From IMG/VR virus record IMGVR_UViG_3300045988_084814: 58,083 bases of DNA. One strand, 5' to 3'. The notes beneath the pieces are model-generated. The model saw nothing but the letters and a program-made list of their open reading frames with translations. It was not told the origin of the DNA and did no database searches. Positions 3,166-58,083 of the stretch are shown here, piece after piece. The stretch's first letter is position 1, and each line of letters opens with the position of its first letter. A program made the translations under genes and the position numbers. This stretch comes from a virus.

Positions 3166-3486
3166 ATGTTTATAATAAATAATATAATGTGGCAAATTGC
3201 ATTTGTGCCAAGCGGCAGTAATAAACTTATGCGTTCTGACGGTTCTATTAGCCTTGCTGTGACCGATTTTAATGACAAGACGGTATATGTATCAGATAAT
3301 GTAAAAAACGGCTATTTACGCAAAGTAATGGCTCATGAATTATGCCATTGTTTTTGTTTCAGTTACAACATATATATGCCTATTCAGCAAGAGGAATATT
3401 TGGCTGACTGGATAAGCTTGTATGGTGCAAACTTGATATATTTGCTTGATGATTTGATGATAACTTTAACAAGGAGTATAGCATGA
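3166..3486 (+). CDS. Small HExxH protein (putative zinc metallopeptidase-like)
   Basis: SD GAGGTG. 106 aa with a single HExxH motif (MAHELCHC). Confidence 0.45.
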   Translation: MFIINNIMWQIAFVPSGSNKLMRSDGSISLAVTDFNDKTVYVSDNVKNGYLRKVMAHELCHCFCFSYNIYMPIQQEEYLADWISLYGANLIYLLDDLMITLTRSIA

Positions 3487-3641
3487 TAAAGGACTTATTA
3501 AGGCAGATACAAAAGACAAACCCTGACATGACAGTAGAAAAACTTATATCTGAGATACGATACAGTGACTATTTAACAACAGCATTGATGATAAGTAAAG
3601 GAATTGCCAGTAAAGAAGAAAACTGCTATAATAGCAAATAA
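3483..3641 (+). CDS. Small hypothetical protein (52 aa)
   Basis: Below the ORF-track size cutoff. Its start overlaps the upstream stop as ATGA. Confidence 0.35.
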   Translation: MIKDLLRQIQKTNPDMTVEKLISEIRYSDYLTTALMISKGIASKEENCYNSK

Positions 3642-3910: not shown

Positions 3911-4039
3911 ATACTTGTTAAGTGTGGTATTATAGAATTACAAGATAAGTTTAAAATGCTTGTCTTGTAAGTTTTGCATAATATATAGATGACAGTATGT
4001 GCGTGTGAATGTGCAAACTGCCGAAAGTGAGGTGACAAC

Positions 4040-4705
4040 ATGAGCAGTCCCGAAAATGATTTTATCGTTGTGAACACAAAGGAAGATGTCTTAAAAGAAC
4101 GGTATATTGCTGGTGCTGATTTAGTCGGCAAATATGGATTTCCACAATTAAATCCAGTTTATGCATACTTGGAAGATATTGAGCCAGTACCGTTCAATCT
4201 TGCAAGTAAAGAAAAGCATCCAAAAAATTGCGTTTGCCATTTTTTTATAGATGATGTACGGTTTGAGCGACTTTGGAACAATCCAAGTAAATACATGGAT
4301 ATACTGAAAAACTTTAAGTATGTATGCGGTCCCGACTTTACTTTCTATGATGATATGCCACTTGCATTGAAAATATGGCAGATATACAGAAGTCGGGCAT
4401 TAAACTATTGCTTAAGTCGAGCCGGTTTAAAGATTATCCCAGCTGTAGGCTGGGGAAGTGAAGAAACATATAACTATTGTTTTGATGGTTTACCGACACA
4501 CTCCACGCTTGCGGTATCGACAAACGGATGCTTTTCAGCAGAGGGGAAAGAATGTTATAGAAAAGGATTTAAAGAAATGTGCAGGCGATTGGAGCCGAAA
4601 CAAGTTGTTGTCTTTGGCTCTCTAATTGATGTAGATGTTGATGTAGATATTATTTACAAGTCAAGCTACTGGCAACAAATGAGTGAGCGATTGAAAAAGA
4701 GGTGA
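4040..4705 (+). CDS. DUF4417-like protein
   Basis: SD GAGGTG. The pattern HFFIDDVRFERLW...PDFTFYDDMP...IPAVGWG...STLAVSTNG matches the DUF4417 family as I recall it. Confidence 0.55.
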   Translation: MSSPENDFIVVNTKEDVLKERYIAGADLVGKYGFPQLNPVYAYLEDIEPVPFNLASKEKHPKNCVCHFFIDDVRFERLWNNPSKYMDILKNFKYVCGPDFTFYDDMPLALKIWQIYRSRALNYCLSRAGLKIIPAVGWGSEETYNYCFDGLPTHSTLAVSTNGCFSAEGKECYRKGFKEMCRRLEPKQVVVFGSLIDVDVDVDIIYKSSYWQQMSERLKKR

Positions 4706-4709
4706 TTTG

Positions 4710-4856
4710 ATGGGTAGCAGGAGTGGAAACAAACGAACTGGATATATTTATACGCCCGGCTTAAAAAAGATAAGCTATACCGAGAAAAAAGGCGGCATCA
4801 CTATCGTAAAAACAAGATATAAATTCTTAAAGCAACGGCGGTCAAGGAGCAAATAA
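4710..4856 (+). CDS. Small basic hypothetical protein (48 aa)
   Basis: SD GAGGTG 5 nt upstream of the ATG. K/R-rich. Confidence 0.35.
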   Translation: MGSRSGNKRTGYIYTPGLKKISYTEKKGGITIVKTRYKFLKQRRSRSK

Positions 4857-4956
4857 CGGCTATATAATGCTTATTATGTGCAAGGATATAAAAAAACAAG
4901 GCTAAGAAGTAAAACGGCTATATGAGGCTGTAGCAAAGAGATGAACAGACACAAAA

Positions 4957-4987
4957 AAAGAGACTTTTTACAGTCTCTTTTCTTTTC
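4957..4987. terminator. Bidirectional terminator between convergent genes
   Basis: Stem AAAGAGACT/AGTCTCTTT, flanked by an A-run on one side and a T-run on the other. Confidence 0.7.
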
Positions 4988-5077
4988 CAAAATGTGGCTA
5001 TTAAATACAATTACTAAATATAAACTATTATTTACATCGTATTTATTTTATATTAGTTTTAACTTAATGTCAAGACC

Positions 5078-5779
5078 TTAAACGAAAAAAACTGGGTTAT
5101 CGTTATCAAAAAGGTTGCAAAAAATTTTAGTATCCTTATCAATATATCGGCATCTCACTTTATTAAACTTTCTAAATCCTTTTTTAGTATATTCATATTT
5201 TTTATTTATATTATATGATATGCTACACAAATCGTCAGGTACAAAAATCTCAGGAACATAAGCATCTTTTTTTAATATCCCTATTTCGTTCTTTTGTTGT
5301 AACTCAACAATTTCAACATCATCAACTCGTAACAAATCTTCATAACGCCCTAATGACAAAAATTTGCGTGGAAATTTCAAAGATGTATAGACCACTTCAA
5401 GGTCATCATCATCTACAGTTTGTATATAAATTTCAAGTTGTAAATTTGCTAAATAATAAAATGTTTTAGGCGATTGAACCCAGCCGGTATAACTGTTGAC
5501 GTTTTCATCTTCGACGATTACAGACCACCTTTTTTTGATTTCTTCTGTGATTGTCTTAAATTTCGCACCGCCTTGCCATTGCATTTTTAGCTCTTTATTT
5601 ATGTAACCTTTTCCCGATATAAAAAAATTCATATTGTGATATTCATGCCAGCCGCAGGCGTTATGTACCATACCTGACACTGTGGAAAATGGTGGCAAGG
5701 GCAAAATCTCAGGAGAGCAAGACAAACTTACAGGAAACCTTGCGGTTTCCATGTAAGCGTTTAATTTAACTGCTTTCAT
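5078..5779 (-). CDS. Solitary Cas5-like (RAMP) protein resembling subtype I-B Cas5
   Basis: Start is the MKAVKL ATG with SD AGAGGT. The N-terminus KAVKLNAYMETARFP...PLPPFSTVSGMVHNACG matches the Cas5 signature (PxPPxST-h-G-h). LSLGRYEDLLRVDDVEIVEL matches the Cas5 LGRxED strand. No other cas gene or CRISPR array is present in the genome. Confidence 0.55.
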   Translation of the reverse strand: MKAVKLNAYMETARFPVSLSCSPEILPLPPFSTVSGMVHNACGWHEYHNMNFFISGKGYINKELKMQWQGGAKFKTITEEIKKRWSVIVEDENVNSYTGWVQSPKTFYYLANLQLEIYIQTVDDDDLEVVYTSLKFPRKFLSLGRYEDLLRVDDVEIVELQQKNEIGILKKDAYVPEIFVPDDLCSISYNINKKYEYTKKGFRKFNKVRCRYIDKDTKIFCNLFDNDNPVFFV

Positions 5780-5789
5780 TGATTTACCT

Positions 5790-5981
5790 CTATTCTGCTT
5801 CACATTCAAAACCTAAAAGAATATCTTTATAAAGTTCTTCACTGATATTCTCTTCTAAAAGAGGTTTTCTATTCTCAAATCCAAGTTCCGCATCAAGTGA
5901 AGCGTCAATTCCCTCTAATGCTTTTTCTCTGCTAAATCCCAACTCCATAACCTCATTTAATAAATCAATAGTTTTTTTCAT
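5790..5981 (-). CDS. Small, very acidic hypothetical protein (63 aa)
   Basis: ATG with SD AAGGTG. It ends 11 nt before the Cas5-like start. D/E-rich throughout and ends in ECEAE. Confidence 0.5.
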   Translation of the reverse strand: MKKTIDLLNEVMELGFSREKALEGIDASLDAELGFENRKPLLEENISEELYKDILLGFECEAE

Positions 5982-6017
5982 AATAGTCACCTTTTAACCT
6001 TTCTTTTATTTTTTATA

Positions 6018-6046
6018 ATTATATCTTTTATAGTGATGTTTTTCAA
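6018..6046 (-). promoter_or_regulatory. Sigma-A-type promoter for the acidic protein and Cas5-like gene pair
   Basis: On the minus strand: TTGAAA, 17-nt spacer, TATAAT. Confidence 0.6.
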
Positions 6047-6217
6047 TTACCAAAAAATTATATTTCCTTTTTTGTCCACATTGTAATGCCACCATTTGCC
6101 CGACTGATACATGATACAAACATTACCGTTTTCGTCAATCCATGTTTTTTTAATTTTGCCGTGTTCCCAGTTTGATGTTTGGGAACGATGAAAATTGTAA
6201 AGTTCTTCTGCTGCCAT
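6047..6217 (-). CDS. Small hypothetical protein (56 aa)
   Basis: SD GGAGGG. Below the ORF-track cutoff. Sequence MAAEELYNF...KWWHYNVDKKGNIIFW. Confidence 0.45.
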   Translation of the reverse strand: MAAEELYNFHRSQTSNWEHGKIKKTWIDENGNVCIMYQSGKWWHYNVDKKGNIIFW

Positions 6218-6243
6218 CTTTTTGCCCTCCTAATTTTATTTTA

Positions 6244-6285
6244 GAGCAAGCCGGGGAATCGAACCCCGGAAGTGCCGACCTTGCT
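6244..6285 (-). ncRNA. tRNA-like acceptor/T-arm minihelix (no D or anticodon arm)
   Basis: Minus strand reads AGCAAGG-TCGGCACTTC-CGGGG-TTCGATT-CCCCG-GCTTGCT-C. That is 6 of 7 acceptor pairs, a 5-bp T stem and a consensus T loop. It starts 1 nt after the upstream stop codon. Confidence 0.5.
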
Positions 6286-6286
6286 A

Positions 6287-6727
6287 TTAAATTGCTTCTT
6301 TTTCTTTGCTAATTTCTGCCGCAATTATTCCCTGCTCGAGAAAGTAACGAAGTGCGCTATCGCCGAAACGCTGTATATAATATTCCGCAAGCTCCGAAGT
6401 GCTAAAAGCATCTAACGCTGTGCCGACATCGCTATATATTCCGCTATATGTTCTTCGTCTACTTGAAAGTGCCTTATCAACTGGATTTTTTAACTCTTCA
6501 TCTTTAACTCCTACAAGCCTATCAGCTCGCATTGTTCTAGTGTGTTCGTTTCCGCTCTCGTCGGAAATAATAACGCATTTAACGCTTTTTCCACTTTTTG
6601 TTAGCTCTACGCTTTTGACTGTGGAAGTGTAACCAAAATTCCAAACCGTAATCATTCCCGGCTTTAATTCTGCCGCCGGAATTGCTTTTTGCGGTGTGTG
6701 TATTCCTTGTAATTTAATTGTTCTCAT
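6287..6727 (-). CDS. Hypothetical protein
   Basis: Start placed at MRTIKL with SD GAAAGGA. The track ORF begins 12 nt upstream, inside the SD. Confidence 0.6.
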   Translation of the reverse strand: MRTIKLQGIHTPQKAIPAAELKPGMITVWNFGYTSTVKSVELTKSGKSVKCVIISDESGNEHTRTMRADRLVGVKDEELKNPVDKALSSRRRTYSGIYSDVGTALDAFSTSELAEYYIQRFGDSALRYFLEQGIIAAEISKEKEAI

Positions 6728-6750
6728 AGTATCAACCATCCTTTCATTGT

Positions 6751-6812
6751 GTGCCCTGTCTCGTCAGTGCAGGTGGGGCAATTCCTACAGACCGCCGCGT
6801 GGCGGTTTCGAC
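6751..6812 (-). ncRNA. Hammerhead ribozyme, type II topology
   Basis: Minus strand reads GUC-GAAA-CCGCC(ACGC)GGCGG-UC^UGUAGG(AAUUGCCCCA)CCUGCA-CUGACGA-GACAGGGCAC. All invariant core positions are present. Stems I and III are closed and stem II is open. Loop I UGCCC is complementary to GGGCA in the 3' tail. Confidence 0.75.
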
Positions 6813-7147
6813 TAAAAGTCAATGCTTGTATATACTTCTAATATCTCACGCCATTTGTTTTCCTTATCACAATCAAAATTAAGGTCTTTAATATGGAAAA
6901 TTGCATATTCTCCATAATTCTCTCTTAAATCTTGCAACTGATTGTACACTGTTTCAAATTCTTCTAAGTCATCAATATTGAGAATATAACGCTTGTGTTC
7001 CGGGTTGCGAATTATGTAATTTTCTTTCGCTTGAACATATGACGAAAATAATGCTTCAACTTTAACTTTGCTTTTTCTGTCATCCTGTGTTTTTCTATCA
7101 ATCATGTAAACAACTGCCCATTTCATAAAATCTGTATAACTCTTCAT
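6812..7147 (-). CDS. Hypothetical protein
   Basis: First gene of the minus-strand operon. Start placed at MKSYTD with a GGTGA SD; the track start is at 7159. Confidence 0.6.
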   Translation of the reverse strand: MKSYTDFMKWAVVYMIDRKTQDDRKSKVKVEALFSSYVQAKENYIIRNPEHKRYILNIDDLEEFETVYNQLQDLRENYGEYAIFHIKDLNFDCDKENKWREILEVYTSIDF

Positions 7148-7196
7148 ATCAATCACCATAACCTTTCTTGCTATTCGCTTTCCTTATGTTGTATAT

Positions 7197-7225
7197 ATAA
7201 TAACAAATGTCACGCACTTATGCAA
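7197..7225 (-). promoter_or_regulatory. Promoter of the minus-strand accessory operon, with the operator in its spacer
   Basis: On the minus strand: TTGCAT, 17-nt spacer, TATTAT. The spacer contains ATAAGTGCGTGA. Confidence 0.55.
7210..7221. repeat. Operator repeat TCACGCACTTAT, copy 1
   Basis: Exact 12-mer shared by four sites. Confidence 0.8.
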
Positions 7226-7244
7226 TAGTAATAATATACAAACA

Positions 7245-7256
7245 TCACGCACTTAT
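7245..7256. repeat. Operator repeat TCACGCACTTAT, copy 2
   Basis: Exact 12-mer. Confidence 0.8.
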
Positions 7257-7276
7257 TTTGTGCAATTTGTATATTG

Positions 7277-7305
7277 TTGACATTGTCACGCACTTATGAT
7301 ATTAT
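7277..7305 (+). promoter_or_regulatory. Promoter of the RHH gene, with the operator in its spacer
   Basis: TTGACA, 17-nt spacer, TATTAT. The spacer contains TCACGCACTTAT (copy 3, 7286-7297). Confidence 0.65.
7286..7297. repeat. Operator repeat TCACGCACTTAT, copy 3
   Basis: Exact 12-mer. Confidence 0.8.
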
Positions 7306-7338
7306 AATGAATAAATATAATATAAGGAGGTCTACAAA

Positions 7339-7536
7339 ATGGCAGAATTAAAAACAACTGACGCACACAGAAAAGCGGTCAGAAAGTACGAAAACAGTAA
7401 TTACAGATTGAATTTAACATTCCCGAAAGGGACAAAAGAAAGAATAGAATCATTACAGTTAAATAAAACAAATTCAGCTTTTATCAGAGATACAGTTTTG
7501 AGCAAACTTGATGAACTTGAAAAAATATTAAAATAA
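7339..7536 (+). CDS. Ribbon-helix-helix (Arc/CopG-like) DNA-binding protein
   Basis: SD AAGGAGG. 65 aa. Predicted beta strand (YRLNLTFPKG) followed by two helices (TKERIESL, NSAFIRDTVLSKLDE). Confidence 0.6.
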   Translation: MAELKTTDAHRKAVRKYENSNYRLNLTFPKGTKERIESLQLNKTNSAFIRDTVLSKLDELEKILK

Positions 7537-7550
7537 CGCACTGATTAGTA

Positions 7551-7579
7551 TTGACATTATCACGCACTTATAGTATAAT
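7551..7579 (+). promoter_or_regulatory. Consensus promoter with the operator in its spacer
   Basis: TTGACA, 17-nt spacer, TATAAT. The spacer contains TCACGCACTTAT (copy 4, 7560-7571). Confidence 0.7.
7560..7571. repeat. Operator repeat TCACGCACTTAT, copy 4
   Basis: Exact 12-mer. Confidence 0.8.
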
Positions 7580-7627
7580 GAATACATCAAATAAAGAAAG
7601 GCAGTCAATGGCTGAAAGGTGGATATT

Positions 7628-7948
7628 ATGAAAAGAGAGGACTTTAAAAAGATTATAAAGTTGCGCAGCGATTGGAAGATTGACAGACGCACAGGTGATT
7701 ATTTTTTGCCAAGCGGAGAAAAGTTGTCAGCATATATTTCTAATTTGGTTGAAAGTCAATTAGAGATTGACAATTTAGGCATTCGTGAAAATGGCGATAT
7801 ATGTTATATGAGCGGCGGCGATTGGAACACTGAAAGCAAAGAATTTGACAACTATACTCTTTTGCCAGAATTTGAAAGTAATGAGATATGCTCATACGAA
7901 GAAATGGAAAAAAGGATTAGTCGTTTGGTGCGTGAGATTGTACAGTAA
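7628..7948 (+). CDS. Hypothetical protein
   Basis: ATG with SD GAAAGGTGG. 106 aa. Confidence 0.6.
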   Translation: MKREDFKKIIKLRSDWKIDRRTGDYFLPSGEKLSAYISNLVESQLEIDNLGIRENGDICYMSGGDWNTESKEFDNYTLLPEFESNEICSYEEMEKRISRLVREIVQ

Positions 7949-7964
7949 ATAAATTAAATTTTTT

Positions 7965-7992
7965 AGCGGCTTGAAATATAGCCGCTTTTTTT
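7965..7992 (+). terminator. Rho-independent terminator
   Basis: Stem AGCGGCT/AGCCGCT followed by TTTTTT. Confidence 0.8.
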
Positions 7993-8613
7993 AATACAAT
8001 CATATTTTATAATAATACAGAAAATTGAGTTACGGATAGGGTATATGTCATTACTCAAAAATCTGTATAAATCTAGTCTAGTTTCTGTATAATTTTACAA
8101 ACACGAACTCGAATTTCTGTATATTTTTAAAAACAGCATTTTTGTATTGCATTTTTAACAAGTAAATAGTGGTCCATATTATTTTATTTTGTGCAGTTGT
8201 CACAAATATTATGCTATATTTATACATATTTTCGAGTTTTTCGATACACCATACAAGCATCTGTTTCTGTTTACTGTTATATCAAAGACTTTAACTCTTA
8301 GATAAAACTATAGTATTAGCCACTAAAGTATATTAAGCATAAATATATATATAAATACAGCCAGTACAGTATATTATAAATATATATACTACACTATACA
8401 CATATATAGCCAGTATGTAGATTATATATAAAGCAAAAAAACATATTTAGGGTATTGACAGTAGTTATATTTAGCTGTATAGTAGATGCATAAATTAAAT
8501 AACTTAGCTGTTTAGCACTTGTAAGAGATATATAAACACATGTATAGAGTATGTGTAGAATGTATATCTTTGCAGGTGCTTTTTATTTATATAACAATAC
8601 TGGAGGTGAGAAG
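7993..8613. repeat. AT-rich non-coding region with short iterated motifs (candidate pac site or origin)
   Basis: About 620 bp with no credible ORF. TCTGTATA occurs at 8062, 8084 and 8116, with an inverted copy at 8016. AGCCAGTA occurs at 8359 and 8408. There are many TATATA runs. Confidence 0.5.
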
Positions 8614-9267
8614 ATGGCAGATTATGAAGATGTTGAAGTATTCGACAACGCTATAGAGACATATATACAAGAATACTGTGACCAATGCCATCCGCCTATC
8701 GAGGATTTAAGTAAAGAACCACAGAACAAATGGAGCGCAGCGTTGATGTATGTTTATAACCATATGTTCAGAGGTACGGATAAATTAAAACTAGATAGAC
8801 CATACGAACAGTATAACAATCCTGAATTACCAAGATTTAATACTACTAACTGTAACGCTTATGATATAGACAAAATAAATGCTGTATGTGATATATATAT
8901 ATATTTATGTGGTATGTATGACAAAGAGGTTAGTATATCAGGATTTAGTAAATTAACTGGTATTGATTATAGCACTATATGTATATGGAATAGCAGAAAA
9001 GATAATGATGAACTAAGTTATCGGCGTTTCAAGGTTTATCAAAAATTGCATGACGAAAGAGAAGAGAGCTTGTGCAATAAGCTGATTACCGGTGGCAAGA
9101 ATCAGGTCGGTATTATTGCTATCTTGAATAGACATTACGGATATGCTTCACCATATACAGCAGACAGCAAGAAGCAAGTCGAACAAAAGACAGCAGCAGA
9201 GCTCCCAAGACTTGATACAGCACCACAACATGTAGCGGCTGTTGAGGATAAGAACAACAAGATATAG
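8614..9267 (+). CDS. Putative small terminase subunit / HTH DNA-binding protein
   Basis: SD GGAGGTGA. An HTH-like segment (SGFSKLTGIDYSTICIW) and GGKNQVGIIAILNRHYGY resemble TerS proteins. Not adjacent to TerL. Confidence 0.4.
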   Translation: MADYEDVEVFDNAIETYIQEYCDQCHPPIEDLSKEPQNKWSAALMYVYNHMFRGTDKLKLDRPYEQYNNPELPRFNTTNCNAYDIDKINAVCDIYIYLCGMYDKEVSISGFSKLTGIDYSTICIWNSRKDNDELSYRRFKVYQKLHDEREESLCNKLITGGKNQVGIIAILNRHYGYASPYTADSKKQVEQKTAAELPRLDTAPQHVAAVEDKNNKI

Positions 9268-10385: not shown

Positions 10386-10457
10386 TGGGGTATCGCCAAG
10401 AGGTTAAGGCATAGCACTTTGACTGCTACATCATGGGTTCAAATCCCATTACCCCAG
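10386..10457 (+). tRNA. tRNA-Gln (anticodon UUG)
   Basis: Cloverleaf: acceptor TGGGGTA/TACCCCA, anticodon stem TAGCA/TGCTA with loop CTTTGAC, T arm ATGGG-TTCAAAT-CCCAT. No encoded CCA. Confidence 0.85.
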
Positions 10458-10711: not shown

Positions 10712-10783
10712 TGGCATATAGTTCAGTGGTAGAACGCCTGACTGTTAATCAGGATGTCGCAGGTTCGATACCTGCTATGCCAG
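10712..10783 (+). tRNA. tRNA-Asn (anticodon GUU)
   Basis: Acceptor TGGCATA/TATGCCA, D arm AGTTCAGTGGTAGAAC, anticodon stem CCTGA/TCAGG with loop CTGTTAA, T arm GCAGG-TTCGATA-CCTGC. Confidence 0.9.
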
Positions 10784-13822: not shown

Positions 13823-15031
13823 ATGGCTGATTTGAAAATATTTACAGAAAATATAGAACATGAAGCATTAAATCAGATATATACACTTGTAAAACAGCCA
13901 GCATTTTCGGATTGCAAGATAAGAATTATGCCAGATGTTCATGCAGGAGCAGGGTGTGTTATAGGGTTTACTGCTGATTTAGGAGAAAAAGTAATACCGA
14001 ACATTGTTGGAGTTGACATAGGCTGTGGGATGCTTACTACAAACCTGGGGAATATTGATATTGATTTTGAGAAGCTAGATAACATCATTAGAGAATATGT
14101 TCCAAGTGGTAGAAAAGTTCATGAAGAAGAAAACTCATCTGTCGCAAGCGATATTATTGAAAAATTGAATTGCAAGGAACAGTTGAAAAATATAAATTGG
14201 TTGAAAAGAAGTTGTGGCACGCTGGGAGGCGGCAATCATTTTATCGAAGTTGATAACGATAGCAATAATAATAAATATCTTATTATTCATTCGGGAAGCA
14301 GGAATGTCGGAAAGCAAGTTGCAGAAATATATCAGCAAATGGCGATTGACGATATTTCGGGAAAATCAAACTTTAAACAAGATAGTAAGAAATTGATTGC
14401 TGAATACAAAAAATGCAAAAGAGAAAGAGAAATTAGCAAGGCTATCAAAGAATTAAAGCAGTCCTACGAAGCAAATACAACTAAAATCCCTAGAGAGTTA
14501 TCATATCTTGTTGGAAAACATAGAGAAATGTATTTGCACGATATGAAATTATGTCAAGAGTTTGCGAAAATTAACAGAAGAGCCATTCAGAGCATTATTT
14601 GTTACTATATGGGCTGGAAAGTTACAAAAGAAACGGAACGATTTCAAACAATTCACAACTACATTGAACACGATACAAATATTGTTCGTAAAGGTGCTAT
14701 TTCTGCAAAAACAGGCGAAAAGGTACTAATACCAATAAACATGCGTGACGGTTGCATTTTGGGAATTGGCAAAGGAAATGAAGATTGGAATTATTCAGCA
14801 CCGCATGGAGCAGGGCGAACAATGAGCAGGTCAAAAGCAAAAGAAAGCATTTTGCTAGAAGAGTATCAAAAAGCAATGGATGGAATATTTACAACATCTG
14901 TAAATACATCCACGATTGATGAAAGTCCTATGGCATATAAAACAATGGATGAAATAATTGGAAATATAAAAGATACTGTTGAAATAGTTGACATTATAAA
15001 ACCGATTTACAATTTCAAAGCAAACGAATAA
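13823..15031 (+). CDS. rtcB: RtcB RNA ligase (3'-phosphate/5'-hydroxyl)
   Basis: Motifs present: MPDVHAGAGCVIG, GVDIGCGM, GGGNHFIE, HSGSRNVG, APHGAGR. 402 aa. Confidence 0.9.
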   Translation: MADLKIFTENIEHEALNQIYTLVKQPAFSDCKIRIMPDVHAGAGCVIGFTADLGEKVIPNIVGVDIGCGMLTTNLGNIDIDFEKLDNIIREYVPSGRKVHEEENSSVASDIIEKLNCKEQLKNINWLKRSCGTLGGGNHFIEVDNDSNNNKYLIIHSGSRNVGKQVAEIYQQMAIDDISGKSNFKQDSKKLIAEYKKCKREREISKAIKELKQSYEANTTKIPRELSYLVGKHREMYLHDMKLCQEFAKINRRAIQSIICYYMGWKVTKETERFQTIHNYIEHDTNIVRKGAISAKTGEKVLIPINMRDGCILGIGKGNEDWNYSAPHGAGRTMSRSKAKESILLEEYQKAMDGIFTTSVNTSTIDESPMAYKTMDEIIGNIKDTVEIVDIIKPIYNFKANE

Positions 15032-26223: not shown

Positions 26224-26241
26224 TCAGAATGAGGTGATTTG

Positions 26242-29200
26242 ATGGAATTAGATAGTTTAGAACTGAAAGTATCGGCAGAAGCACAGTCGGCAGAAAAAGC
26301 ACTTGACAGCCTTATAGGTAAATTACAGAGTTTTTCAAAAGCACTTGGCGGTATAAACACTACTTCCATCAGTAAAAACCTTGAAAATCTTGCTAAAGTC
26401 GGTGGATTGAAAACTGTCACTAAAGAGGTAGAGGACTTAGGGAAAACTGTAGACAATGTCGGTAAGAAGAAAACAAAGACTGAGGTTAAAGTCGATGTTA
26501 AGCAAGGTTTAGAAGCTATTGCCGAATTACAGAAACGATTTGAAAATGCGGACAAAGATATAAGATTTACTGGGTCAACAAAACAACTTGAAAAGCAATA
26601 CGACAGATTATCTAACAGTCTTTCAAAACTCTTTGCAAAAGAAAACGCAGCACTTGATTTAGGCAAAGCAAGTACAGGTGATGAAAAGTTTGTTAAATTA
26701 GAGCGTAACATACAGTCAACCATAAACCAACTTGACACACTTAAATCTAAAATCACAGAAGTTCAAAAAGCAGAACAGGCGAGCAAGGCACAATTTTTTG
26801 AAAGAGAAAATGCAAAGGCAAATCAAGAAAACAAAACTGCCATGATGATACCACCTGAGAGTGAAATGAAAAAGGCGGCTGAAACATATCAAAAAAATAT
26901 AGAAAAAATATCATCAGACACATTGCCTAAACACACAGGTTGGGATAGTCAAGCAGAACTTCTTAAAGCATTAAAACAGTCTCGAGAGGGAACAGCAGGA
27001 GCATTAGAGGGATATGACGAAAGAATAAAGAAAGCCACAGCCGACCTTAAAGCAGTCGAAAAAAGCGGCAAAGGCATGGGTACTGAGGAATGGGACAATG
27101 CTAGTATTGCATTACAAAAAGTTGTGGCAGAAGCTAAGTGGTATAAAAATACCTTAAAAGAAGCGGCTGCCGACCTTGGTTTGAATGTCAAATCCATTAA
27201 GGAACTTGAAGCAGAAGAAAGCAAATTAGTACAAAAATCAAATCAACTTGCTGGAAAAAAATTATACGGAAGTGCTGATTATAACGAGACTATTTATCAA
27301 CTTGGACGAGTTAGAGAAGAATTAGATAAGCAGAAAATAAAAATTACAGGTGCGAGCAGTGCTTTAAAAGGTTATGACGAGCGTATTGCACAAGCTAAAA
27401 TCAATCTTGCTAATATACAAGCCACAGGCAAGGGCATGGGAACATCTGAATGGGATAATGCTAAGATGGCTTTAATCAAGTTAGAAGATGAAGCAAAGCG
27501 GTATAAAGCGGCTTTAAATCAAAAAGCATTAGGTCTTGATACCGACATAAAATCAACGGATAACCTCGAAACAAAGATAAAGAAATTAAATCTTGCTATA
27601 GAGCAAATGAGAAATAGAGGTATTGGTTTCGGTGATACAAACTTTGATAAGCTGTATCAACAGCTTAATCAAGCTGAAAAAGAACTTGCAGAGTACAAAG
27701 CTAGATTGACAGAAAGTGAAAACTCAACAAGAAGTTTTGGCAGTACATTAAAGAGTGCGGCAACAGGTTTTTCTAATTTTATCAGTAAGATTAAAAATGC
27801 CGGTGCGGCAACACTGAATTTTGCTAAGAATGTCCGTAACATGAAATCGCCTTTAAAACTTGCACTCGGTCAAATTAGTAAATTAGGAAATTCGGTTGCA
27901 AGGCTGTATTTCAAGTACATGATGTTATCGAGGGTTGCTGGTGCACTTGGTAAAGTTCTTGGCATATCAAGTGATTATGTTGAGGAATACAACTATTTTC
28001 AAAAGGCAATAGACAAGATTGCACAGGAAAATAAAGGCAATTACAAAAAATACGGCTATGATGATGCTAAGAGTTATGCGGATAGCTTTGAGGATAGACT
28101 TACAACTCTTACAGGCAAAATGACAGGATATAAGCCCGATAAAAACGGAAATCTTATAGATACTGATGTGGCAAGTCTTGGGCTTGATATTACACAGGTT
28201 ACAAACTTTGAAGCACAGATTGCACAAATGACAAATTCTGTCGGCATGATGGGCGAAGCCTCTATTGCAACCTCAAAAGCACTTACAATGCTTGCTGGGG
28301 ATATGTCATCATTAACAAATATGCCGCTTGATACCGTTATGAAAAACTTTTCAAGTGGTCTTTCGGGTGCGGCAATGGCTGTCAAAAAATATGGTATGGA
28401 CATATCAGTTGCGGCATTACAGGAAACAGCACTTGGGCTAGGTGTTAAGAAAAATGTTTCTGATATGACACAGGCTGAGAAAGAGTATTTGCGTGTTATC
28501 ACTATGTTACAGCAGTCTAAAGTAGCATGGGGCGACTTAGCTAAGACTATCAATTCTCCCGCAAATCAATTTAGAATGTTAAAGTCAAATATCAAACAAT
28601 GCGGCTTGATGCTTTCAAGGCTGTTTATGCCTGTCATTCAAAAAGTATTACCTTGGCTCAACGCAATGGCAATGGCTGTTAAAGACTTAATGAAACATAT
28701 CGGTGACTTGTTCGGCTTAAAGTTTGATAACAGTCTTGGTTCAACAGACAGTGGCACATCAGATACCTATGACGATGTATCAGACAGTGCCGACAATGCG
28801 GCAGACAGTATAAATAATGCGGCAGATGCACAGAAGAAGTTTAACAAGCAGTTGCAAGGATTTGATAAATTAAATAACCTTACAACAAACGAGACTTCAA
28901 AGGGTGACAACGATAGTGACAAAGGTAATACTGGCGATACAAGCGGTGTTTTATCAGATGCACTTATAAACGCTGTTGAAGATTACGAGAAGCGTTGGAA
29001 CAAAGCATTTAAGAGTATGACAAGCGATGCTGACAATCTCAAAGAAAAGATTGAAAAACTGTTTACAACAGCATGGGACACAGGTGACGGAACAGAAATC
29101 GGTGAAGCACTTGCGACAACCTTAAATAAGGGCATTGACTGGGTGAACGAACATCAAAGTGAGTGGTCTAGTGGTCTTAATAAGATTACTTCAATTATGG

Positions 29201-31803
29201 GAACTACCCTTAACGGATTTATTGAGAAATTTGAATGGAAAGGTCTTGGACAAGCTATCGGCGGTTCTATAAAAACAGCACTTGAAGCAGAAACAAATTT
29301 CTTTGAAACTGTAAACTGGGTAAATCTTGGAAAAGGTTTGTCGAAAACTCTTAATTCAGCTATCAAAACAGGAGTTTTGCAGTCGTACTTTAAATCAATA
29401 GCAAGCAAGCTAAGGGCGGCTATTGAGACAGCGTTTGGGGCAATTACTACATTTAAGTTTGATAAATTAGGTGAAGCATTAGGGCAAGGAATAAATGACT
29501 TTTTTAAGACAATGAATAAGAAAAATAAGCAGACTGGTCTTAATGGTTGGCAAGAACTTGGCAAAAGTTTAAGTGATGGCATAAAAGGCATTGCAGATAG
29601 TATTACGACTGCACTTGATACTGTTGATTGGGAAGAAGTAGGACAAGCTATAGCAGATTTTATAGGTGCTATTGATTGGGGCGGAGTTGTTTGGTCATTG
29701 GGTAAGATGGCAAAGGCATTGATAAAAGCAATAGGAAAAACAATTGCTGCTCAAACAAAAGAAGACCCAGTTTCAGGTGTAATCACTATTGGAATTTTAG
29801 GATTTTTGCTTAGAAAAGGCTGGAAAAAACTACTTGCAATATTGCTTGGAAGTAAAATTGGAAAGTCTAAATTAAGTGTAGGACTTTCAAGAGTTTTTGC
29901 TGTTATAAAAGCATGGTCTATATCAAAAATAAGCAAGGCGGCTAAGGCTCTTGCAACAAAGATTAAATCAGGAATCGGCAAAATAGTTGTCACATTTAAA
30001 AATGTATATGCAAGTATTAAAAATTGGATAGCAAGCGGTGCAAAAATTAGTGATTTGATAAAAGCTGTAAAAACAGCATTAGGCATACAAAAGGGACTGA
30101 CATTGTCGAATATTGCTGTTAAGATTGCTACAAAGTTACCAACATTAGCAAATCCCGATATGGCGGCTGATGAACTAGCAAGAAATATTGATGAATGGTT
30201 TACAAACAAAATTTGGAAGCCGCTTTGCAAAAAGGTTTCTTGGCTTGATGAAAACTCACCTATGGGTGTTTTTCAAGTACCTGTAAAATTAGCTATAAAG
30301 ATAGGCACAACAATAAAAGACTTTTTCGGAGATACTTGGGATGATACGACAGCCATGACATCCGGAATTGATGTGGGAAACGATATGGCAAACGGAGTTT
30401 TAAAGGGGTTTGCTAATGCGTTGGTATATCCTGCAAATTTCCTTTACAATCTTATTGTAAAACCTGTCAAAGAAGCATTAGGAATACATTCTCCGTCAAC
30501 GGTATTTAAGGAGATTGCAGGATATTGCGTTGATGGTTTTATGAATAATTTTAATTTAAAGGACAAAATAAAAGAAAAACTTCAAAATTTAGGTAAAGCA
30601 ACTATTGAACTTGGATTAAAAATAAAAGGCAGTTTTGACGATAAAGCCAAAGAAATCAAGGAATGGTGGAACGGCAAAAAAGAAAAAGCGAAAACTTTAC
30701 TGGCTAAAGCAAAAGGAGAAATAACTAAAAAGTTTGAAGATGTAAAAGAAGCTTGGGGCAAGGTTAAAGAGGGAGTTAAAAATTTATGGGCTAAAGCAAA
30801 AGCTACAGTTGAGGGAGCATTTAATAAAGCTGTTGAAAGCTGGAATAATATCAAAGAGGGAGTTAAAAATTTATGGGCTAAAGCAAAAGGTAAGATTGAA
30901 GATACTTTTAATGAAGCACGACAGGCGTGGTCAGATTTTAAAGAGGGAACAAAAAATATTTTCGTCAGAGCCAAAGGAGTTGTTGAGGATGGCTTTGAGA
31001 AAGTTTCTGAAGCTTGGGGGAAAATCAAAGGCGGTACAAAAGAGTTTTGGGCTAAAGCAAAAGCTACAATATCGGATAAGTTTGACGAATTGTCCGAAAA
31101 GTGGGGCAAATTAAAGACTAAAGGTATAATCGTAACTGCAAAAGCTACAATTAAAGATGGCGTTGACAAAATCGGAAGTATATGGAAAAGCGTTAAAACA
31201 AAAACAGCTACCTTAACAGGAAAAGCAGAAGAAAAAACCAAAGATGTTTTTAAGTCAATAAAAGATAAATGGAAAGAATTAACGAGTAAAACAGCAGTTT
31301 TAACAGCTACTTTTAAAGATATGTTCACAGCACCGTTAAAAAAGGCTTGGAATGCTATTGCTAGTGCAATTAACAAAGGAATTAAAACTATCAATAAAAT
31401 ACCGGGAGTTAGCATTCCGTCAGTACCTAAGCTGGCAAAAGGAGGTATTTTTGAAAATGGTTCGTGGCACAACATAGCAAAATATGCAAGCGGCGGTATG
31501 CCGAATATGGGGCAGTTATTTGTAGCAAGAGAAAAAGGCCCTGAGCTTGTAAGTACATTAAAAGGTCATACTGCGGTTATGAATAACGACCAAATCGTTG
31601 CGTCAGTATCGCAAGGTGTGTCAGACGCAGTGTATAATGTTATGACACCTGTTTTGACAAATCTTGTATCAAGCATAAACCGTATGAACAGTAGCGGCAC
31701 ACCTCTCTATGTCGAGGGGGTTTCTGAGGGTGATATAGTTAAGATAACCCAAAGTGCAAACGCTGATTACAAGAAGCGGTACGGCAAACCTCTTTTCACT
31801 TAG
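26242..31803 (+). CDS. Tape measure protein
   Basis: 1853 aa, helical and repeat-rich, with a hydrophobic central segment. Position is canonical. ATG 6 nt after GAGGTG. Confidence 0.9.
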   Translation: MELDSLELKVSAEAQSAEKALDSLIGKLQSFSKALGGINTTSISKNLENLAKVGGLKTVTKEVEDLGKTVDNVGKKKTKTEVKVDVKQGLEAIAELQKRFENADKDIRFTGSTKQLEKQYDRLSNSLSKLFAKENAALDLGKASTGDEKFVKLERNIQSTINQLDTLKSKITEVQKAEQASKAQFFERENAKANQENKTAMMIPPESEMKKAAETYQKNIEKISSDTLPKHTGWDSQAELLKALKQSREGTAGALEGYDERIKKATADLKAVEKSGKGMGTEEWDNASIALQKVVAEAKWYKNTLKEAAADLGLNVKSIKELEAEESKLVQKSNQLAGKKLYGSADYNETIYQLGRVREELDKQKIKITGASSALKGYDERIAQAKINLANIQATGKGMGTSEWDNAKMALIKLEDEAKRYKAALNQKALGLDTDIKSTDNLETKIKKLNLAIEQMRNRGIGFGDTNFDKLYQQLNQAEKELAEYKARLTESENSTRSFGSTLKSAATGFSNFISKIKNAGAATLNFAKNVRNMKSPLKLALGQISKLGNSVARLYFKYMMLSRVAGALGKVLGISSDYVEEYNYFQKAIDKIAQENKGNYKKYGYDDAKSYADSFEDRLTTLTGKMTGYKPDKNGNLIDTDVASLGLDITQVTNFEAQIAQMTNSVGMMGEASIATSKALTMLAGDMSSLTNMPLDTVMKNFSSGLSGAAMAVKKYGMDISVAALQETALGLGVKKNVSDMTQAEKEYLRVITMLQQSKVAWGDLAKTINSPANQFRMLKSNIKQCGLMLSRLFMPVIQKVLPWLNAMAMAVKDLMKHIGDLFGLKFDNSLGSTDSGTSDTYDDVSDSADNAADSINNAADAQKKFNKQLQGFDKLNNLTTNETSKGDNDSDKGNTGDTSGVLSDALINAVEDYEKRWNKAFKSMTSDADNLKEKIEKLFTTAWDTGDGTEIGEALATTLNKGIDWVNEHQSEWSSGLNKITSIMGTTLNGFIEKFEWKGLGQAIGGSIKTALEAETNFFETVNWVNLGKGLSKTLNSAIKTGVLQSYFKSIASKLRAAIETAFGAITTFKFDKLGEALGQGINDFFKTMNKKNKQTGLNGWQELGKSLSDGIKGIADSITTALDTVDWEEVGQAIADFIGAIDWGGVVWSLGKMAKALIKAIGKTIAAQTKEDPVSGVITIGILGFLLRKGWKKLLAILLGSKIGKSKLSVGLSRVFAVIKAWSISKISKAAKALATKIKSGIGKIVVTFKNVYASIKNWIASGAKISDLIKAVKTALGIQKGLTLSNIAVKIATKLPTLANPDMAADELARNIDEWFTNKIWKPLCKKVSWLDENSPMGVFQVPVKLAIKIGTTIKDFFGDTWDDTTAMTSGIDVGNDMANGVLKGFANALVYPANFLYNLIVKPVKEALGIHSPSTVFKEIAGYCVDGFMNNFNLKDKIKEKLQNLGKATIELGLKIKGSFDDKAKEIKEWWNGKKEKAKTLLAKAKGEITKKFEDVKEAWGKVKEGVKNLWAKAKATVEGAFNKAVESWNNIKEGVKNLWAKAKGKIEDTFNEARQAWSDFKEGTKNIFVRAKGVVEDGFEKVSEAWGKIKGGTKEFWAKAKATISDKFDELSEKWGKLKTKGIIVTAKATIKDGVDKIGSIWKSVKTKTATLTGKAEEKTKDVFKSIKDKWKELTSKTAVLTATFKDMFTAPLKKAWNAIASAINKGIKTINKIPGVSIPSVPKLAKGGIFENGSWHNIAKYASGGMPNMGQLFVAREKGPELVSTLKGHTAVMNNDQIVASVSQGVSDAVYNVMTPVLTNLVSSINRMNSSGTPLYVEGVSEGDIVKITQSANADYKKRYGKPLFT

Positions 31804-57998: not shown

Positions 57999-58083
57999 GT
58001 GTACGACGAAGATTTAAGAGAGCGATTACTCTCACGGGAACAAATACAAAAATTAGACTTAGTAACTCAAACAATATTGTTTA
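57999..58083 (+). CDS. 5' part of a small ORF that crosses the circular junction (continues in frame to 141)
   Basis: GTG start after AAAGGAGAG. The frame runs through the 55-bp repeat and ends with TAA at 139-141, overlapping the start of the 89-613 gene. Confidence 0.3.
   Translation, partial: MYDEDLRERLLSREQIQKLDLVTQTILF
58029..58083. repeat. Terminal direct repeat copy 2
   Basis: Identical to 1-55. Confidence 0.95.

Follow-up and report, generated by a model that had tools for sequence, protein, structure and literature searches.

A Cas5-like gene and a crRNA-like gene on a circular phage genome

The IMG/VR virus record IMGVR_UViG_3300045988_084814, a stretch of 58,083 nucleotides (nt) referred to here in its entirety as the window, carries on its minus strand a solitary gene for a 233-amino acid (aa) Cas5b-like protein and, directly behind its stop codon, a small gene resembling those for CRISPR RNAs (crRNAs). 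The window is a complete circular contig, as had been stated in a preliminary description of the interval 5078–5981 made from the sequence alone: bases 1–55 are identical to bases 58029–58083. Its G+C content is 36%. It encodes the portal, major capsid and terminase proteins of a tailed phage along with a large serine recombinase, indicating that the phage is probably temperate.

The Cas5-like open reading frame (ORF) occupies positions 5078..5779 (−) with an ATG at 5779; the ORF listing prolongs the frame to a TTG at 5809. Upstream and on the same strand lies the gene for an acidic 63-aa protein (5790..5981, −), and the gap between the two ORFs is 10 nt, one less than was first given. A promoter-like sequence, TTGAAA-17-TATAAT, precedes the 63-aa gene (6018..6046, −), matches the consensus at 11 of 12 positions and begins right behind the stop codon of an upstream 56-aa ORF. 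This site had been proposed to serve just the two genes. The site itself is as described, but its exclusive service of the pair is not established: no terminator separates the pair from three small co-oriented ORFs of 56, 150 and 115 aa (6047..7159, −), whose membership in the leftward unit is uncertain, and promoter-like matches are no commoner in this region than in shuffled sequence (16 observed, 13.1 expected).

The crRNA-like unit (5073–4953, −) came to light in an alignment of the sequences that follow the Cas5-like gene in related loci. It opens 4 nt past the Cas5-like stop codon with a second promoter-like sequence, TTGACA-17-TAAAAT (5045..5073, −; 11 of 12 consensus positions), followed by a 7-nt stretch (5044–5038, −) and the crRNA 5' handle ATGTAAAT (5030..5037, −), the remnant of a first pseudo-repeat, which reproduces exactly the 3'-terminal 8 nt of the repeat in the host type I-B array. 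A 22-nt pseudo-spacer, AATAGTTTATATTTAGTAATTG (psiS1; 5008..5029, −), shared with the related loci L019 and L005-8, separates the handle from a second pseudo-repeat, TATTTAATAGCCACATTTTGG (4987..5007, −), which corresponds to the 5' part of the repeat without the handle and matches the host CRISPR repeat at 16 of 21 positions. A strong intrinsic terminator with a 13-pair stem and a T-run (4953..4984, −; fold z-score −3.76) marks the end of the small-RNA gene and of the protein operon alike.

The preliminary description held that the genome contains no other cas gene and no CRISPR array. The former was borne out for type I-B genes: phmmer, queried with the complete set of Cas proteins from two type I-B host loci, matched nothing in the window but the Cas5-like ORF. 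Tandem Repeats Finder and Rfam likewise found no CRISPR array in the window, but to leave the matter there is misleading in view of the degenerate repeat, pseudo-spacer and repeat unit at 5073–4953, and the conclusion that the Cas5-like protein lacks any CRISPR-type partner in the genome is incorrect: a crRNA-like gene with an exact 5' handle lies directly downstream and is conserved with it. The feature of most interest, a conserved coupling of a viral Cas5 to a crRNA-like regulator, is found just outside the interval first described.

The protein is a divergent Cas5b homologue of mobile elements

The 233-aa product is a genuine but divergent homologue of Cas5b. The NCBIfam profile TIGR01895 (Cas5b) aligns to its full length with E=1.7e-19 and 70.3 bits, short of the curated cut-off of 96.7; the Cas5b models of PADLOC recognize it at 4e-20, while the match to Pfam Cas_Cas5d (4.5e-4) is sub-threshold (20.7 against 23). 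An AlphaFold2 (AF2) model based on 20 homologues reached a predicted local distance difference test (pLDDT) value of 87.9 and a predicted template modelling (pTM) score of 0.80. Foldseek comparison of this model with the PDB returned significant matches that are nearly all Cas5 chains of I-A, I-B, I-C and I-E effector complexes, the best being 8fcj_A (2.4e-7, TM score ~0.53). The Cas5 assignment of the preliminary description therefore withstands both the profile and the structural comparisons that it had proposed, and the motifs that it quoted, KAVKLNAYMETARFP, PLPPFSTVSGMVHNACG and LSLGRYEDLLRVDDVEIVEL, are present in the ORF. The N-terminal PLPPxST-GM-H and the LSLGRxED columns are invariant among mobile-element copies and operon-encoded or source-annotated Cas5b proteins. 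The protein also bears clade-specific insertions (WxGG...KRW), and its identity to Cas5b of the host Butyribacter intestini is ~31%.

A database search for relatives yielded a close group at 57–95% identity, after which identity drops to 28–36% in the remaining matches; the one lower-identity match examined, P0013, lies in a cas3-cas6-cas8b-cas7-cas5-cas4-cas1-cas2 operon. Members of the close group are also solitary, with no cas operon, and are found either on phage-like contigs, again preceded by the small gene, or on conjugative elements that encode a relaxase and a coupling protein (86–88% identity). Together they form clade A, confined to mobile elements of gut Lachnospiraceae. Three distant viral clades, B, C and D, were found via the small gene and a profile scan, and the clades are 31–47% identical to each other. 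In a neighbor-joining tree of 100 sequences, a method in which long-branch effects are possible, clades A–D are monophyletic with 100% bootstrap support and stand apart from 80 chromosomal Cas5b sequences, to which the window protein is 29–34% identical. A scan of GTDB representatives for prophage copies found only Cas5b matches of at most 38% identity and none of the mobile-element clade, and the few GTDB loci inspected have Cas5b within cas operons accompanied by arrays. For the cas5 of a Fusobacterium phage, a single-protein scan found nothing. The protein thus belongs to a clade found solely on phages and conjugative elements, where its gene is under strong purifying selection: the ratio of nonsynonymous to synonymous substitution rates (dN/dS) is 0.08–0.12, and an intact ORF is present in well over 100 viral contigs of those sampled from 221 viral matches.

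The crRNA-like unit resembles a host cas-regulating RNA

Expression of cas genes can be autorepressed through CreR, an RNA of the host that resembles a crRNA (Liu et al., bioRxiv 10.1101/2023.03.10.532045). Judged by its sequence, the viral unit is a copy of such an RNA gene and is predicted to make an RNA of the kind that Liu et al. named Cracr, their term for viral CreR-like copies. The relationship is clearest in relatives of the window. L019 (the 96%-identical relative), L012 and the conjugative elements have a longer version of the unit with an extra complete pseudo-repeat, TATTTAATAGCCACATTTTGGGATGTAAAC, and a second pseudo-spacer (psiS2 in L019), and the window has apparently lost one pseudo-repeat/pseudo-spacer unit relative to L019 by repeat recombination. 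The complete pseudo-repeat matches host CreR pseudo-repeats at 27 of 30 positions and the CRISPR repeat at 23 of 30, while BLAST aligns window 4984–5038 with the creR locus of Eubacterium sp. MSJ-13 (L062:108–168) at 79% over 61 nt (E=5.5e-6). These comparisons tie the viral unit to host creR and not to the CRISPR array. The viral and host elements share the pseudo-repeat/pseudo-spacer/pseudo-repeat structure and a common pseudo-spacer family, and psiS1, at 22 nt, contrasts with host spacers of 34–38 nt. The viral unit differs from host CreR in being located on a phage beside a Cas5-like gene instead of upstream of cas6, and its presumed purpose is the opposite one, repression enforced for the benefit of the invader. 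A search of the window for a solitary full host repeat gave best matches with 9–10 mismatches in 30, as in shuffled sequence, and this candidate was discarded.

The promoter-like sequence at 5073–5045 is kept in L019, L005-8 and L012. Units of clades B, C and D show the same order of elements, including an analogous promoter. The −10 box precedes the handle by 7–8 nt in clades A and D, and transcription should therefore start at the handle, with no need for Cas6 cleavage. Clade B has a GC hairpin ahead of the handle resembling a minimal Cas6 site; in L159 and L167, ~60–200 nt past the Cas5-like stop codon, this GC-rich hairpin is inserted directly before the AATGTAAA handle. The 30–34-nt pseudo-spacers of clade B contain an internal hairpin in which pairing, read by eye, is seemingly kept although both arms of the stem have changed (TTAGC/GCTAA in one case, GTTAG/CTAAC in another).

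Linkage of the two genes

The association of the two genes was assessed with a strict pattern for the unit (ATGTAAAN, 18–38 nt, [TA]AATAG-N2-4-CA[TC]) in 80 IMG/VR loci anchored on the Cas5-like gene. The unit was found within 400 nt and on the same strand in 78 of these 80 loci, and each of the 80 pattern matches in the 527 kb searched is adjacent to the gene. On both strands of the 58-kb window the pattern matches once, at 5037 (−). When a closely related pattern was applied to ~1.1 Mb of host loci, its three matches outside arrays were all host creR. The arrangement of the pair varies: the crRNA-like gene is directly downstream of the Cas5-like gene in clades A and B, divergent and upstream of the small gene in clade C, and directly upstream of the Cas5-like gene in clade D, where both are probably on one transcript via a leaky terminator. 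The linkage therefore holds over four protein clades, three arrangements, and both phages and conjugative elements, the latter also carrying the module as a unit.

Listeria plasmid cas5 genes (L016, L017), alongside which no repeat-like element was seen, differ in this from the clade of the window protein. The regions concerned, each with a solitary cas5, are 5001–5714 in L016 and 3998–5452 in L017 (pLM33); in pLM33 an AP2-domain gene is found directly behind cas5, the AP2 domain being also that of the CasPR proteins, cas-gene repressors reported recently. A further Listeria entry, L018 (GenBank OR846720, 'Listeria phage LM 4-11-1', UNVERIFIED_ORG), has, in the stretches 4001–4729 and 7800–8700, a Cas5b-like ORF and an array of at least 14 repeats of GTTTTAACTACTTATTATGAAATGTAAAT, and is probably host chromosome with a true type I-B locus or a mis-binned contig.

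The host type I-B system targets the phage

The window was compared with 80 chromosomal type I-B loci from species-representative genomes. Butyribacter intestini TF01-11 has a 48-repeat type I-B array (repeat GATTTAATAGGAACATAATGGGATGTAAAT), two spacers of which match the locus exactly. Spacer 3 (36/36) corresponds to a protospacer inside the 63-aa gene (5815–5850, with a CCT protospacer-adjacent motif (PAM) at 5812–5814; 5812..5850, +). Spacer 12 (34/34) corresponds to one just downstream of the Cas5-like gene (4990–5023, with a CCA PAM at 4987–4989; 4987..5023, +), which overlaps the crRNA-like gene. At least five further spacers of this strain match relatives of the phage. The host I-B system targets this phage, and B. 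intestini TF01-11 and the phage family provide a defined host–phage pair with matching spacers.

The B. intestini locus has its own pseudo-repeat/pseudo-spacer/pseudo-repeat gene upstream of cas6 and divergent from it. The psiS2 of L019 matches this locus twice, in the host crRNA-like gene and in the cas6 promoter; the promoter site is matched at 21 of 22 positions, is preceded by CCA and overlaps the −35 box (TTGACT) ~100 nt before the cas6 start codon. It is also the site to which the host's own crRNA-like gene corresponds as a target. Lachnospira eligens and Eubacterium sp. MSJ-13 likewise have a host crRNA-like gene and a CCA-flanked target upstream of cas6, an arrangement that agrees with published accounts of CreR autorepression, and the clade D pseudo-spacer is identical to the first 17 nt of the CreR pseudo-spacer of L. 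eligens. Liu et al. require at least nine PAM-proximal bases in common with the host CreR spacer or its promoter target; L019 psiS2 shares that many with the B. intestini site (21/22, CCA), and so does the clade D pseudo-spacer with L. eligens CreR (17/17).

The source of spacer 12, the phage crRNA-like gene, is homologous to a host creR locus (L055 4440–4483) that is likewise flanked by CCA. The spacer differs from the host creR copy at seed positions and illustrates the risk of autoimmunity that has been discussed for shared mini-arrays.

Relation to known anti-CRISPR proteins and RNAs

Two kinds of known inhibitor bear on this locus. AcrIB3 of Listeria seeligeri, a homologue of Cas5b with 38% identity to Cas5, inhibits type I-B immunity. 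It prevents Cascade from binding DNA and is recovered together with Cas6/Cascade on purification, and none of this is seen with overexpressed genuine Cas5 (Katz et al., bioRxiv 10.1101/2023.06.24.545427). The same study, 'Diverse viral cas genes antagonize CRISPR immunity', tabulates 358 orphan viral cas genes, and its Table S3 includes IMGVR_UViG_3300045988_105414, the Cas5-like gene of which is 96% identical to that of the window, together with two other members of the family (IMGVR_UViG_3300045988_093898 among them) whose predicted host is Lachnospiraceae. The proposal, made in the preliminary description, that the protein is a decoy for Cas5 is thus supported by an experimental precedent and by a host I-B system that targets the phage, although the idea itself belongs to Katz et al. 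As with AcrIB3, the gene in the window is an orphan on a mobile element that encodes a full-length Cas5b homologue of its own clade, about one third identical to genuine Cas5b. The two proteins are 34% identical (E=3e-37, with sequences from the supplement of Katz et al.); the window protein differs in its gut Lachnospiraceae hosts, its clade-specific insertions and, above all, the nearly constant linkage of genes of its type to a crRNA-like RNA gene, which is absent from the description by Katz et al.

The second kind comprises RNAs. Shmakov et al. reported Clostridium perfringens phages with type I-B mini-arrays that mimic a host mini-array upstream of cas6, with the phage spacer shortened, and viral mini-arrays aimed at other viruses are also known (Shmakov et al.). 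Liu et al. described synergy between Cracr RNAs and co-encoded anti-CRISPR (Acr) proteins, as well as the silencing of creT, in place of cas, by some Cracr RNAs; in the case of AcrIF24 and CracrIF, smaller RNA-loaded complexes escape the protein. The unit in the window shares with these elements the degenerate repeats flanking a shortened spacer, the location on a phage or plasmid outside a CRISPR-cas locus, the homology to a mini-array that the host has upstream of cas6 and that targets a site with an I-B PAM in the cas6 promoter, and the tight link to a protein Acr, here a candidate; L019, with its two units, further resembles the multi-unit Cracr arrays. It departs from them in that the linked protein is not an unrelated Acr such as AcrIF24 but a homologue of the Cas subunit that binds the 5' handle of the RNA itself, and in the promoter placement of clades A and D for a start at the handle, which would make 5' processing by Cas6 unnecessary. 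The main texts of the Cracr preprint and of Shmakov et al. do not mention Cas5 (the Cracr supplement of 219 candidates being outside this comparison), and a subsequent preprint by the group behind AcrIB3 presents Cracrs as distinct from AcrIB3.

Racr RNAs, in which a lone CRISPR repeat acts by sequestration, offer a third comparison. RacrIF1 has no usable 5' handle and excludes Cas5f and Cas8f from an aberrant complex, and RacrIC1 is co-encoded with AcrIC5 (Camara-Wilpert et al., PMC10651486). The unit in the window is similarly a phage-encoded mimic of a CRISPR repeat with its own promoter, and Racr genes too sometimes stand beside an Acr protein, but the unit retains an exact 8-nt handle and a pseudo-spacer. 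The retention of handle and spacer-like segment places it with CreR and Cracr and not with Racr.

Inhibitors that descend from Cas subunits and viral RNAs that imitate cas-regulating ones came to light recently and separately, and the present locus indicates that in phages and conjugative elements of gut Lachnospiraceae they form one conserved module. The near-obligate pairing of a Cas5-like gene with a crRNA-like gene appears to be undescribed, each part being of a known kind, AcrIB3-like and Cracr-like, respectively. A Cas5-like gene together with a mini-unit bearing the ATGTAAA handle provides a signature with which type I-B anti-CRISPR loci may be sought in the human gut virome.

A model for the locus and its alternatives

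These observations have led us to propose that the locus is a two-armed anti-CRISPR module directed against the type I-B system of a Lachnospiraceae host, B. intestini or a close relative, a reading to which we assign a probability of about 0.62. In one arm, the Cas5 mimic would take the position of Cas5 in host Cascade and cap the crRNA 5' handle, yielding, by analogy with Listeria AcrIB3, Cascade complexes without interference activity. In the other, the crRNA-like RNA would be taken up by Cascade in competition with immune crRNAs and would direct the complex to the cas6 promoter, holding the cas operon repressed. The two arms would be functionally coupled; the RNA would block the compensatory de-repression of cas, and the burst of Cas synthesis, that is expected upon inhibition of Cascade in CreR-regulated systems. 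A strategy of repression fits the temperate lifestyle.

Poisoning of the AcrIB3 type does away with DNA binding, so that both arms could operate only if there is a means for them to coexist. The protein could poison immune complexes and spare those loaded with the shorter RNA (22–27-nt pseudo-spacer), in analogy to AcrIF24 and CracrIF, which we regard as a serious possibility that falls somewhat short of even odds. More tentatively, the viral Cas5 may be a dedicated cap for the viral RNA. Slightly more tentative still is the suggestion that the phage caps its own guide-like RNA in this way to build a hybrid, shortened Cascade with host Cas7 and Cas8b, which would repress the cas operon. Such an RNA would start at the 5' handle without Cas6 processing and carry a 5' triphosphate, and the complex would be cleavage-incompetent, occupying the cas6 promoter with no recruitment of Cas3. 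Since the 5' handle of the RNA is bound by precisely the Cas subunit to which the protein is homologous, the locus raises the question of whether hybrid effector complexes are formed from a Cas5 and a guide of mobile elements plus host subunits. If so, this would be the first case in which a host class 1 effector is reprogrammed by a mobile element that provides a guide as well as a Cas subunit.

Several points weigh against the two-armed module. Poisoning of all complexes would defeat a repressor RNA that itself depends on Cascade, and the mechanism of discrimination offered above is a hypothesis. Expression of the two products, incorporation into Cascade, repression and inhibition are all inferred from sequence, and the promoters are known from consensus matches only. 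The window protein lies outside the AcrIB3 sequence clade, as a joint clade of A–D with the Listeria AcrIB3 group receives 9% bootstrap support. Over a whole repeat, the element in the window matches the host repeat at 20 of 30 positions, which is the chance level, and its significance therefore rests on relatives and context. The psiS1 of the window matches the B. intestini cas6-promoter site at 18 of 22 positions with mismatches at seed positions 5 and 6, leaving only four contiguous matches by the PAM-proximal criterion of Liu et al. No exact psiS1 target occurs in the 80 host loci or in the window itself, and a metagenome scan with CCA+psiS1 gave 40 matches, none of which reaches the full psiS1; the best (23/25) are on contigs with names suggesting marine or other environmental sources.

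Other explanations were considered as well. The psiS1 of the window, lacking an identified cas-promoter target, could guide a hybrid Cascade of viral Cas5 and viral RNA to something other than cas, such as a CreT-type toxin, another defence promoter, a competitor element or a target of superinfection exclusion; creT-silencing Cracr RNAs and virus-targeting mini-arrays are on record, and relatives bear two different pseudo-spacers. We nevertheless consider this unlikely, because the pseudo-spacers are variants of one theme, homologous to those of host CreR and unlike spacers acquired from competitors, because L019 psiS2 and the clade D pseudo-spacers match the CreR/cas6-promoter site of known hosts, and because 22–27 nt are too short for canonical interference. 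About equally unlikely is the version of the preliminary description, a stand-alone dominant-negative Cas5 decoy accompanied by the 63-aa protein as a second Acr; the crRNA-like element would then play no part, or would be a chance neighbour within an island of anti-defence genes. AcrIB3 does act alone as a protein in Listeria, where the plasmid cas5 genes have no repeat-like element beside them, and the 63-aa protein is tiny, acidic and co-oriented, with one homologue fused to a helix-turn-helix (HTH) domain, as in many Acr-Aca proteins. However, an RNA element present at 78 of 80 loci in three arrangements, and nowhere else in those loci, is linked far more tightly than the usual mosaicism of anti-CRISPR islands would lead one to expect, and the small gene is often 3–4.6 kb away, belongs to a much broader family and encodes a protein without similarity to AcrIB4 or to PADLOC or Pfam families.

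Two further readings dispense with an anti-CRISPR function. The fold of the protein, that of the repeat-associated mysterious proteins (RAMPs), might serve an RNA-binding role outside CRISPR, for example in RNA processing, with the similarity to Cas5 reflecting shared ancestry only; the score below the curated Cas5b cut-off, the WxGG...KRW insertions and the presence in the phage of RtcB and tRNAs are compatible with this. The full-length Cas5b alignment with the invariant family motifs kept, the exact I-B 5' handle on the neighbouring RNA and the targeting of the phage by the host I-B system make it very improbable. Least credible is that the locus is a mere leftover, as a lone cas gene beside a degenerate repeat, one unit shorter than in L019, might at first suggest. 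Already disfavoured by the low dN/dS and the intact ORF of so many viral contigs, it is also at odds with the conservation of the near-consensus promoter and terminator of the unit across clades that are only 31–47% identical, with pseudo-repeats that resemble host creR and not array repeats, and with the movement of the module between phages and conjugative elements.

The acidic 63-aa protein

The 63-aa protein is as acidic as first described, with 17 D/E against 7 K/R and a pI of 4.28, and AF2 predicts three helices with a pLDDT of 94.6. Its N-terminal helices are UBA-like (LGF loop). The model has no fold match with E<1 in the PDB, and the protein belongs to no family in Pfam, NCBIfam, PADLOC or PHROG; it shows no similarity to any known Acr in these comparisons, which covered general family libraries and AcrIB4 but no dedicated Acr database. 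We considered that it might be a counterpart of AcrIB4, a mimic of the Cas8b C-terminus, and rejected this, as BLAST gave no alignment to AcrIB4 and a phmmer search with host Cas8b found nothing in the window.

Homologues form 572 clusters at 68–94% identity, a level maintained even where the accompanying Cas5-like proteins are only 31–41% identical. A profile search of 1.8 billion representatives returned small stand-alone relatives, a few fusions and UBA-like similarity only, the family profile weakly recognizing UBA domains including a synthetic tandem-UBA construct. The gene has a dN/dS of 0.11–0.26. A Cas5-like gene is present within 5 kb in 63 of 88 loci anchored on the 63-aa gene; the two are adjacent in some loci, separated by an HTH gene in clade C and 3–4.6 kb apart in clade D. 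The family being far larger than the Cas5-like clade and the two genes being so far apart in many relatives, there is no support for the 63-aa protein as an obligate partner of Cas5. The acidic Acr-like partner envisaged in the preliminary description likewise finds no support in the comparisons above. In one homologue, P0181 (150 aa), the sequence is fused to an XRE-type HTH domain, and in Blautia prophages (L107 5001–6313) an HTH gene stands between the small acidic gene and the Cas5-like gene. The fusion and the neighbour hint at a regulatory (Aca-like) connection. The protein is possibly an accessory, which could serve as a partner in regulation or as an additional domain of the Acr type.

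Towards its 3' end (window 5814–5838), the 63-aa gene matches the host's own cas5b gene (L055 8189–8214) at 25 of 26 nt with one gap, and another cas5b from the Lachnospiraceae (L057 8189–8238) at 80% over 50 nt. The match is in the same orientation, differs in frame past the gap and overlaps the spacer 3 protospacer; at E ~0.01–0.1, it may be due to chance or be a recombination scar.

Neighbouring genes

Megablast of window 4000–9000 against GenBank phages gave no match. The three small ORFs upstream of the 63-aa gene (6047–7159) have no match in Pfam or PHROG, and a divergent gene beyond them (7339–7536) encodes a putative 65-aa regulator that appears ribbon-helix-helix-like on reading the sequence and whose sole PHROG match is a family of unknown function. 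On the other side of the module, a pair of ORFs is conserved between the window (3166–3641) and L135 (652–1166), one of them weakly M78-peptidase-like (sub-threshold in Pfam) and the other ~50 aa long. In clade D phages the crRNA-like/Cas5-like module is found directly behind this pair; in the window it lies on the opposite strand, ~1.5 kb from the pair and beside a DUF4417 gene (4040–4705), for which one of the PHROG families matched carries a nuclease annotation. Within a 1854-aa ORF (26239–31803) that presumably encodes the tape measure protein, a segment of 87 bp is repeated in tandem (2.1 copies; 30764–30948). The RtcB RNA ligase is encoded at 13823–15031 (Pfam 6.7e-58) and the two tRNAs at 10386–10457 and 10712–10783, and together these may constitute a repair kit against tRNA-cleaving host defences.

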